Virus record (IMG/VR): IMGVR_UViG_2778261459_000005
Strand: one strand, 5' to 3'
DNA: 4,590 nucleotides
Origin: a virus
Taxonomy: Duplodnaviria > Heunggongvirae > Uroviricota > Caudoviricetes
Below, piece by piece: positions 1,486 through 2,792 of the stretch (position 1 is the stretch's first letter; each line of letters starts with the position of its first letter). The notes beneath the pieces were generated by a model that was not told where the DNA came from, did no database searches, and worked only from the letters and a program-made list of their open reading frames with translations. Both the position numbers and the translations under genes were made by a program.

Positions 1486-2028
1486 GTGGCTAAAAAAGGC
1501 GACTTTAAGCCTACCCAGAATGAGGTTGACCAAGCTATTACTCGCTTGAAAAAAGTAACTTTTAGCGGAGTTACATGGACCGGAAGTGAGGGACGAACCC
1601 CAATCTGGTTTAAATTGGATCTCAAAGCTTTTGATGAAATTGGCAACCCAATCACAGGCATAAGATTTATGCTTCACTGGCGTCCTCCTATCGTTGAAGG
1701 GGTGGATATAGTGAAGATTTCATTTGTGATGTTTCTTCATGACAGGCGCATTTACGCGCTTGACCCGTACCCTGCGGATAACAAGCCACACCGTAATAAA
1801 TCTATAGTGAACCATCCAGATTTTGTTGAGGTGGCTCGAGGTCCTCACTATCACATGTACTTCGAATCAGCTGGGGAAGAAATTGCACTTAAGCTTGAAA
1901 CGAACATCAAGCCAGATGATTTTTTTGGCTACTGGAATTATTTTTGCGAGGCGCTTAATATCATATATGAAGGCAGCCCACCTTTACCTAATCAAGATAA
2001 ATCAGGTCAGCTATCATGGGAAATGTAA
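1486..2028 (+). CDS. Hypothetical protein (180 aa, GTG start), first gene of an accessory cassette in the rexA/rexB position; function unknown
   Basis: Long ORF co-oriented with cI, 46 nt downstream of its stop. GTG start is preceded by GGTGAT (SD-like) at a 9-nt spacing. No predicted TM segment. No domain I recognise. Does not resemble lambda RexA. Confidence 0.7.
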   Translation: MAKKGDFKPTQNEVDQAITRLKKVTFSGVTWTGSEGRTPIWFKLDLKAFDEIGNPITGIRFMLHWRPPIVEGVDIVKISFVMFLHDRRIYALDPYPADNKPHRNKSIVNHPDFVEVARGPHYHMYFESAGEEIALKLETNIKPDDFFGYWNYFCEALNIIYEGSPPLPNQDKSGQLSWEM

Positions 2029-2792
2029 CGTGTTCAACAGTCATATCTAAGCTCGGGTTTGAATGCCACCCAATGAGCGACACGTTGCTGCGCGTTATTA
2101 GTCCCTTCACATACTACGATGATTGTGAGCAGATAAGTGTATTCGTTCAAGAGATGAGTGGTCAGTATAGGGTTACAGACTACTGCGATACATTGATGAA
2201 TATTGAATCACGCGGCATCCACCTGACTAAAAAGAAAATTGATCTGATCAGGTCATCACTCGCTTCGCAAGGAATTTCATTAAATGACTCTGGAGAGATA
2301 TCTGCGTGGGCAGATGAGTCGTCCGTTGGACAGGTAACTGCAAATGTTATTCGTGGTGGGATTCTTGCATCCGCCCAAACTGCTGATTGGTATGCTGAGG
2401 TCAAAGACGATAAGTTCGAAAAATGTGTAATCAGTTACTTAAAATCAGCAGGGCTTGGGAAGCGACTAGCCTTAAAGGAAAAAGTGAAAGGTATTAGTGG
2501 GCATAACATTACTGTTCCGTTAACGCTAAGGAATGAGTCTCGACTAATACCACCAAAACGCGGGTTTACGGTAAGCCTTGCCAGCAGTAAGGGATGGAAT
2601 ACTGCCCACTCAACAGTTGGGAAGATTGTTGACTTAAGTCAGGTCGTTCCTGACATAAACAATAGATTTGTAATAGTTGACAGCGATGGGTTAACACCTG
2701 AGCTACAGCAACTATCACTACTATTTAATGATACCGCACGAGTGTTGCCATTCCATACCAGAGACTCTTGGATTGAGTCTCTGGTAGCCTAG
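2016..2792 (+). CDS. Hypothetical protein (258 aa), second gene of the accessory cassette; function unknown
   Basis: ATG at 2016 overlaps the last codons of the upstream ORF (ATGGGAAATGTAA), suggesting translational coupling. Ends 1 nt before the tIMM-like terminator. No TM segments, so not RexB-like. No recognisable motif (the SAGLGKR stretch is not a Walker A). Confidence 0.7.
   Translation: MGNVTCSTVISKLGFECHPMSDTLLRVISPFTYYDDCEQISVFVQEMSGQYRVTDYCDTLMNIESRGIHLTKKKIDLIRSSLASQGISLNDSGEISAWADESSVGQVTANVIRGGILASAQTADWYAEVKDDKFEKCVISYLKSAGLGKRLALKEKVKGISGHNITVPLTLRNESRLIPPKRGFTVSLASSKGWNTAHSTVGKIVDLSQVVPDINNRFVIVDSDGLTPELQQLSLLFNDTARVLPFHTRDSWIESLVA

Follow-up and report, generated by a model that had tools for sequence, protein, structure and literature searches.

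What does a lambdoid prophage carry in place of rexA and rexB when its repressor operon lacks both? The question is posed by a 4,590-nucleotide (nt) stretch of a tailed phage genome (IMG/VR record IMGVR_UViG_2778261459_000005), referred to below, at its full length, as the window. The window comprises a lambdoid immunity region, inverted in orientation relative to the lambda map, in which the cI repressor gene is followed by two genes, here called orfA and orfB. An earlier note, made from the letters of the sequence, had described these genes as an unrecognised cassette and a candidate exclusion or abortive-infection system. Analysis of the pair showed it to lie in the repressor-adjacent position in more than 100 prophages of many immunity types. 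With a confidence little above an even balance, we lean toward the view that orfA-orfB is a two-protein, prophage-encoded anti-phage module, acting by superinfection exclusion or abortive infection.

A recurrent gene pair in the rexAB slot

The genes and control sites that define the slot are the following (window coordinates; ORF, open reading frame; aa, amino acids; HTH, helix-turn-helix).

672..779, strand not applicable: OR/pRM-pR control region, separating the cro ORF from that of cI and containing one operator copy (694-716)
780-1439, plus: cI repressor (Pfam Peptidase_S24, 1.1e-28; HTH_3, 1.9e-10)
1440..1485, plus: cI-orfA spacer of 46 nt, without a terminator
1486-2028, plus: orfA, 180 aa, GTG start, predicted soluble and beta-rich
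2016-2792, plus: orfB, 258 aa, predicted soluble, with a DUF1828 N-domain and a C-domain assigned to a DUF1829-type PD-(D/E)xK fold
2793..2826, plus: tIMM-type intrinsic terminator, stem CCCGGC/GCCGGG at 2798-2815, then TTTTCTTT
2990..3050, plus: OL/pL region, directed to N, with operator copies at 3002-3013 and 3020-3042 that match OR

Homology to lambda ends at the cI stop codon and restarts at the last codons of rexB. Thus, window positions 1440-2790 replace rexA-rexB to the base, the gap spanning exactly the slot that the earlier note had named, and the cassette boundaries coincide with lambda positions 35831 and 37227. The 3' half of the cI gene (1029-1439) is 94.9% identical to lambda cI; RefSeq places the start of this gene at 744, and in Escherichia coli F5 it is annotated as a LexA family protein. 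The two reading frames of the cassette are co-oriented and overlap by 13 nt, their extent and sizes being those given in the earlier note, and RefSeq agrees on the coordinates, the coding sequence calls for orfA and orfB in strain F5 being identical. Prophages matching the entire window at 99.5% identity lie in five complete E. coli chromosomes, in which orfA and orfB are annotated as 'hypothetical protein' and 'DUF1828 domain-containing protein', respectively.

The spacer between cI and orfA forms no hairpin (the segment 1425-1500 folds at -7.4 kcal/mol, z = +1.26) and yielded no terminator-like site in the scan, in line with the unbroken passage from cI to orfA that had been claimed. After orfB, a hairpin followed by a T-run occupies positions 2798-2824 (-21.4 kcal/mol, z = -3.28). 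Segment 2791-2830 shares 97.5-100% of its positions with lambda 35792-35831 and with the terminators annotated in HK542, HK244 and mEp332; judged by its sequence, the hairpin is lambda tIMM. An operator arm of 23 nt (694-716) pairs with its OL-region counterpart at 3020-3042 with 87% complementarity, and this operator pair places OL/pL about 200 nt downstream of the hairpin, again as the earlier note had it. The terminator-less spacer suggests that cI, orfA and orfB are co-transcribed. We propose that orfA-orfB would be transcribed as the distal part of a repressor operon running pRM/pRE - cI - orfA - orfB - tIMM and, from this position, would be made in the lysogen.

Promoter-like sites within the cassette were not in excess (6 found, 9.2 expected from shuffles). 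An internal orfB promoter in the style of lambda pLIT was rejected, as only 9-of-12 consensus matches turned up and such sites are fewer than in the shuffles. Scanning the cassette against Rfam gave no RNA family. A perfect inverted repeat (2756-2786; 12-nt arms, 7-nt loop), the only one found in the cassette, lies within the final codons of orfB, shortly before tIMM. It occurs only in the E. coli allele and is absent from other alleles encoding nearly the same peptide; being allele-specific, it was rejected as a conserved RNA or DNA element, or self-immunity site, of the family. The cassette had also been described as AT-rich. Its GC content (0.433) is that of the whole window (0.433), the left and right flanks having 0.448 and 0.424, and GC at third codon positions contradicts the description as well; the argument for a separately acquired moron, drawn from AT-richness, fails with it.

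The distribution of the pair, A and B denoting orfA, orfB and their relatives, was analysed in a viral sample of 80 IMG/VR loci with repressors clustered at 80% identity. A is adjacent to B in 79 of the 80, the two overlapping by 13 nt in 45 loci and by 4 nt in 34. Upstream of the pair stands a cI-like (HTH/S24) gene in 78 loci, falling into 23 repressor clusters that include genuine lambda cI, and just after B a GC hairpin with a T-run is present in 80 of 80, the tIMM core being retained in 72. The earlier argument from anatomy, by which slot cargo would be read from the repressor promoters and stopped at tIMM, holds across many loci. Types of A and types of B co-vary strictly one to one. The overlapping frames and this co-variation argue for translational coupling and for a physical complex of the two proteins.

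The same order (HTH/Peptidase_S24 repressor, A, B, all on one strand) was found in seven of seven species-representative genomes of Enterobacterales: Pantoea, Providencia (two species), Yersinia, Xenorhabdus, Thorsellia and Izhakiella. It is also found in an Stx1a phage and in coliphages ev207, ev017, PhiR63_2 and PhiR57_1, all of which carry a sister allele (40% identity for A, 51% for B). Judging by their ECOR13 hosts, PhiR63_2 and PhiR57_1 probably stem from Brenes and Laub 2025, reportedly the cited source of a panel of lambda-related temperate phages. More distant occurrences are those in Pseudomonas phage phPA-G (A unannotated), Burkholderia phi644-2 (gp48/gp47), a Helicobacter prophage, Eoetvoesiella, Cupriavidus and several metagenome contigs. 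The window allele was present in 61 of 5426 complete E. coli genomes (about 1%), always on the chromosome, and no member of the A-B family was found in 72,556 plasmids. E. coli O104:H4 2011C-3493, from the 2011 outbreak, carries an identical orfB (WP_000528776.1) together with an orfA allele at 2534772-2536078, under locus tags O3K_RS12410 and O3K_RS12405, behind a different cI gene of 714 nt.

Comparison of the cI-pL slot in related phages, which the earlier note had suggested as a check, showed the A-B pair to be recurrent and other cargo to stand behind the same cI. Phages with 99% identical cII-cro-cI hold the following unrelated genes in the slot.

2G7b (L015), 1538-2389: 283-aa protein without a family
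2B8 (L016), 1566-2423: NYN-domain protein
Stx2a phages (L017), 1941-2462: 173-aa protein without a family

Unrelated cargo behind the same cII-cro-cI indicates that the A-B pair is dispensable and accessory.

Three further observations were made on these loci. An extra 113-aa DUF3024 gene, which matches PADLOC PDC-S43 at 3e-35, lies between cI and A-B in Providencia and Izhakiella prophages (L007 3052-3393, L008 3053-3394, L012 3044-3385). A TacA/acetyltransferase toxin-antitoxin pair is found just upstream of A-B in one metagenomic relative (L106 1409-2178). Finally, orfA starts with a non-ATG codon, GTG or TTG, in most enterobacterial alleles (window 1486; L002, L006, L007, L009), suggesting a deliberately weak initiation of the upstream gene.

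The OrfA and OrfB proteins

Comparison with the Pantoea allele gave nonsynonymous and synonymous divergences (pN/pS) of 0.137/0.785 for orfA and 0.107/0.795 for orfB. Synonymous sites are thus saturated (pS about 0.79) while pN is low, indicating that both are real genes under purifying selection. The exact orfA sequence was found on 140 contigs and the exact orfB sequence on at least 1000. The maximal 19-residue Kyte-Doolittle mean is 1.22 for OrfA and 0.79 for OrfB, against 3.04 for SieB; neither protein should therefore contain a membrane span, and both are predicted to be cytoplasmic and to lack a signal peptide. Searches of NCBIfam returned no match for either, and sequence searches against solved structures, with single proteins and with profiles, gave noise (a T-complex protein, nitrophorin, a designed Kelch protein and a His-tag artefact). 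The statement that the proteins belong to no known family was upheld in part: OrfB is a member of Pfam DUF1828 and both proteins have PHROG families (2017 for OrfA, 1960 for OrfB), OrfA being the one whose fold goes unmatched.

OrfA matches DUF6978 (PF22398) with 23.3 bits over its C-terminal part only (98-159), below the gathering threshold of 29.6 bits; a precomputed PF22398 match exists for a few close homologues. The family is very small, 22 clusters having been retrieved by an exhaustive HMMER scan of 1.84 billion cluster representatives, and its members are all standalone proteins of about 166-184 aa. Residues R88, H121, H123 and F153 are invariant. Close homologues share a C-terminal tail, ...PLPNQD-SGQLSWEM, which is disordered in the model. 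Readings of the histidine motif as a cupin (HxH-x3-E) or a His-Me finger were rejected, E127 not being conserved and neither fold giving a structural match.

OrfB scores 40.9 bits against DUF1828 over residues 30-112, above the gathering threshold of 22 bits. Its AlphaFold model (predicted local distance difference test score, 82) has two domains, and structure comparison matched it to type III secretion system (T3SS)-chaperone-like proteins and to PD-(D/E)xK nucleases (Can2, NucC, restriction enzymes). From the order of secondary structure elements in the model, residues 1-125 were assigned to a type-III-secretion-chaperone/YbjN-like domain and residues 130-258 to a PD-(D/E)xK domain, the modelled C-domain containing the alpha-beta-beta-beta-alpha-beta core fold. 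Remote homologues alignable with OrfB over its whole length exceed the thresholds of both DUF1828 and DUF1829, those of phi644-2 and Helicobacter reaching 23.4 and 29.1 bits with DUF1829 (cut-off 22.2). DUF1829 is placed in the PDDEXK clan in the DefensePredictor tables (Pfam PF08861/PF08862 correspond to DUF1828/DUF1829). Among 15 diverse B proteins, C6, C17, D36, D55, E94, I95, L142, S161 and D206 are invariant and H163 nearly so; the DUF1828 domain thus has an invariant Cys2/Asp2/Glu set, and S161, G162, H163 and D206 stand out in the C-domain. The 80 B relatives all have 145-263 aa and consist of DUF1828 with or without DUF1829, and no function-revealing domain fusion was seen among them or among the relatives of A.

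A proposed anti-phage module and its rivals

How might such a pair act? In the scheme that we favour, OrfB would be a sensor-effector in which a chaperone-like DUF1828 domain, binding a peptide or other ligand, is fused to a DUF1829 domain of restriction-endonuclease fold. OrfA, with its R...H-x-H centre, would be the obligate partner, serving as regulator, trigger or second catalytic subunit. The complex would be activated by an infecting heterologous phage and would then attack nucleic acid or block the infection in some other way. The resemblance of the OrfB model to PD-(D/E)xK nucleases used in immunity is consistent with this scheme, and two independent flags suggest a role in defence: the remote relatives of the pair in the PADLOC candidate PDC-M24 and a DUF1828 protein in DefensePredictor. 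The PDC-M24B model matches all B homologues (5e-7 to 4.5e-13), with values of 4.7e-10 to 4.5e-13 for ev207-type and distant B proteins, the match spanning the entire protein only in some, the ev207 type among them; no other PADLOC model matched the window proteins. DefensePredictor lists 250-aa E. coli DUF1828 proteins (DUF1828 + DUF1829) as 'predicted novel defense gene' with log-odds of 5.6-6.3; their length is that of the ev207-type allele, to which they may belong. Because relatives already figure on these two candidate lists, the proposal of a defence function is not entirely new and the word 'unrecognised' was an overstatement. Exclusion or abortive infection, as the function first proposed, has drawn partial support from the synteny and from the two lists.

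A number of observations weigh against an anti-phage role. The matches of the window proteins themselves to PDC-M24 are weak: OrfB, on a remote branch, attains 5.4e-7 (27.5 bits, residues 5-169) with PDC-M24B, and OrfA matches PDC-M24A (E = 4e-4, 18.7 bits) at residues 98-160 of 180 only. PDC-M24A did not match the distant A partners of phPA-G, phi644-2 and the Helicobacter prophage. The 145 PDC systems of PADLOC are candidates embedded in BREX, DISARM or type I restriction-modification (RM) loci and are described as untested, and the DUF1828 protein is absent from DefensePredictor Table S6, where the screened transcription units are given. None of the papers found treats DUF1828, DUF6978 or PDC-M24 as a studied system or reports an experiment on the family, with the possible exception of Brenes and Laub 2025, which may have tested the cassette. 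The canonical PD-(D/E)xK catalytic residues are not conserved in the 15 diverse B proteins, the third strand having no conserved (D/E)xK and K203 being variable, which makes nuclease activity of OrfB doubtful; a catalytic site would lie either in a PD-(D/E)xK fold without canonical residues or in the DUF1828 domain with its Cys2/Asp2/Glu set. The window OrfB gave no match to DUF1829 at E <= 1, its C-domain being, by sequence, too diverged for one. The OrfA model, which is moderately confident, found no fold match in structure comparison. Lastly, so tight a linkage to the repressor would fit lysogeny control equally well.

We also considered, as an improbable elaboration, a repressor-coupled immune module whose chemistry is unlike that of a classical PD-(D/E)xK nuclease. 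Here the DUF1828 domain of B would hold the disordered PLPNQD-SGQLSWEM tail of A, and a phage cue would release or assemble an active site from unusual residues; the candidates are R88, H102, H121 and H123 in A and, in B, either C6, C17, D36, D55 and E94 or S161, H163 and D206. Near-obligate placement behind the repressor would tie immunity to lysogeny and switch it off on induction, thus offering a built-in route to self-immunity.

Among explanations that dispense with defence, the one that survives best, unlikely as we judge it, casts A-B as an accessory that regulates the lysis-lysogeny switch or prophage maintenance, acting on its own phage. Linkage to the repressor is indeed tighter than is usual for defence cargo, extending to 78 of the 80 loci, 23 repressor types and prophages of beta-, gamma- and epsilon-proteobacteria. 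Moreover, RexA, which lambda encodes in this slot, is reported to bind DNA and to bias the lambda switch (PMC11077077), and OrfB is modelled with the fold of a DNA enzyme. However, a pair that is dispensable, as the phages with 99% identical cII-cro-cI and unrelated cargo show, and that stands behind 23 repressors with different operators cannot be tuned to one switch. Its relatives, besides, occur outside prophages, in BREX, DISARM and RM loci and, in one instance, in a chromosomal context near a SIR2 gene.

A shade less likely still is a toxin-antitoxin-like addiction module that would stabilise the prophage by post-segregational killing and play no part against phages. Two small overlapping genes of strictly co-varying types, the upstream one retaining a weak GTG or TTG start and the second encoding a protein with a predicted nuclease fold, would fit this description, and a TacA/TacT module lies in the neighbourhood of one relative. 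Yet Pfam, NCBIfam and PADLOC gave neither protein a match among toxins or antitoxins, neither has a recognisable DNA-binding antitoxin domain, and the family is missing from the plasmids searched, where addiction modules are common. Since many toxin-antitoxin systems are defence systems, this explanation overlaps with that of an anti-phage module. Lysogenic-conversion cargo serving host physiology or virulence rather than acting on phages is the least probable of the three: the slot is one expressed in lysogens, the cassette is carried in pathogenic lineages, E. coli O104:H4 2011C-3493 and the Stx1a phage among them, and the earliest phenotypes tied to bstA, another occupant of the slot, concerned virulence (PMC8585504), but both proteins are predicted to be cytoplasmic, with neither signal peptide nor membrane span and with a nucleic-acid-enzyme fold in the model, and a host range spanning enteric bacteria, Burkholderia, Cupriavidus, Helicobacter and environmental metagenomes argues against a niche-specific host trait.

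If orfA-orfB does constitute an anti-phage module, it would represent a widespread defence family without a characterised homologue, distributed over beta-, gamma- and epsilon-proteobacterial prophages, and would provide a first function for DUF1828 and for the small OrfA family, remotely related to DUF6978. Its fixed place as the last part of the repressor operon, with no fewer than 23 different repressors before it, would make it a clean natural case for the coupling of immunity to lysogeny and for the avoidance of self-targeting on induction, a question that stands for RexAB as well. As a rule for annotation, a small protein and a DUF1828 protein directly downstream of an S24 repressor would mark such cargo.

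Neighbouring genes and known systems

The remaining genes of the window are those of a lambdoid immunity region.

15-311, minus: cII
453-671, minus: cro
3230-3502, plus: N (Pfam N_peptide, 3.4e-32)
3519-4100, minus: sieB (Pfam SieB, 1.8e-25; PHROG 1301)

The first 77 bases of the window are 100% identical to lambda 38591-38667, inside the cII-O region, and we take them to be the oop/tO region of lambda. Adjoining N is the superinfection-exclusion gene sieB, so that the region holds a second exclusion function. Upstream of N, a 60-aa ORF at 3070-3252 (RefSeq hypothetical protein WP_000438342.1) overlaps the N start; it may lie in the nutL leader, and a coding sequence of 183 nt is called at the same position in the Stx2a phage and 2G7b records. 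A 336-bp deletion at 4205-4210, seen by comparison with near-identical prophages (L001 7205/7546, ev207), has removed the anti-restriction gene ral. The end of the window (4514-4590) is an IS10 outside end, with a partial Rfam RNA-OUT match at 4559-4590 (minus strand, 35.2 bits). The insertion interrupts a DUF2528-type ORF starting at 4361, and the E. coli matches to the window all end at 4513.

How does the pair compare with systems already described? Unlike Can2/Card1 and NucC, OrfA and OrfB contain no CARF or SAVED domain, have no cyclase partner and show no conserved catalytic D...(D/E)xK. For DUF1829, the only validated role in defence is that in DS-6B/HipAD, where DUF3037 and DUF1829 occur with a HipA-like kinase (PMC13092281), an architecture that differs from that of OrfB. 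Closer in layout is PDC-M24 (CAS_00098), in which a small A (models of 146-148 positions) precedes a B of about 255 aa on the same strand; it differs in that the N-terminal two thirds of OrfA are unmatched and that its definition derives from cassettes within BREX, DISARM or type I RM loci rather than from the repressor operons of prophages.

The nearest parallels in position come from the cI-N interval, a mosaic hotspot that holds the abortive-infection systems rexAB and bstA, read from the repressor promoter (Owen et al., PMC8585504). BstA of prophage BTP1 consists of one protein, and its self-immunity element, aba, is encoded in DNA; like the A-B pair, it is encoded directly downstream of the repressor, with a presumed common promoter, in diverse Gram-negative prophages (PMC8585504). 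Membership of the RexAB family was rejected for want of RexA/RexB homology and of RexB-like membrane spans, and the unlikeness that the earlier note had remarked upon extends from protein size to sequence and hydropathy. RexA has 279 aa and RexB 144, the reverse of the order in orfA/orfB. The PADLOC RexA model, which detects lambda RexA at 9e-110 as a positive control, matched neither window protein (BLASTP, E 0.6 or worse), and the RexB model gave no match to them (BLASTP against RexB, E = 6.5). What orfA-orfB has in common with lambda rexA-rexB is the slot between the cI stop codon and tIMM, two genes co-oriented with cI and, presumably, transcription from pRM/pRE.

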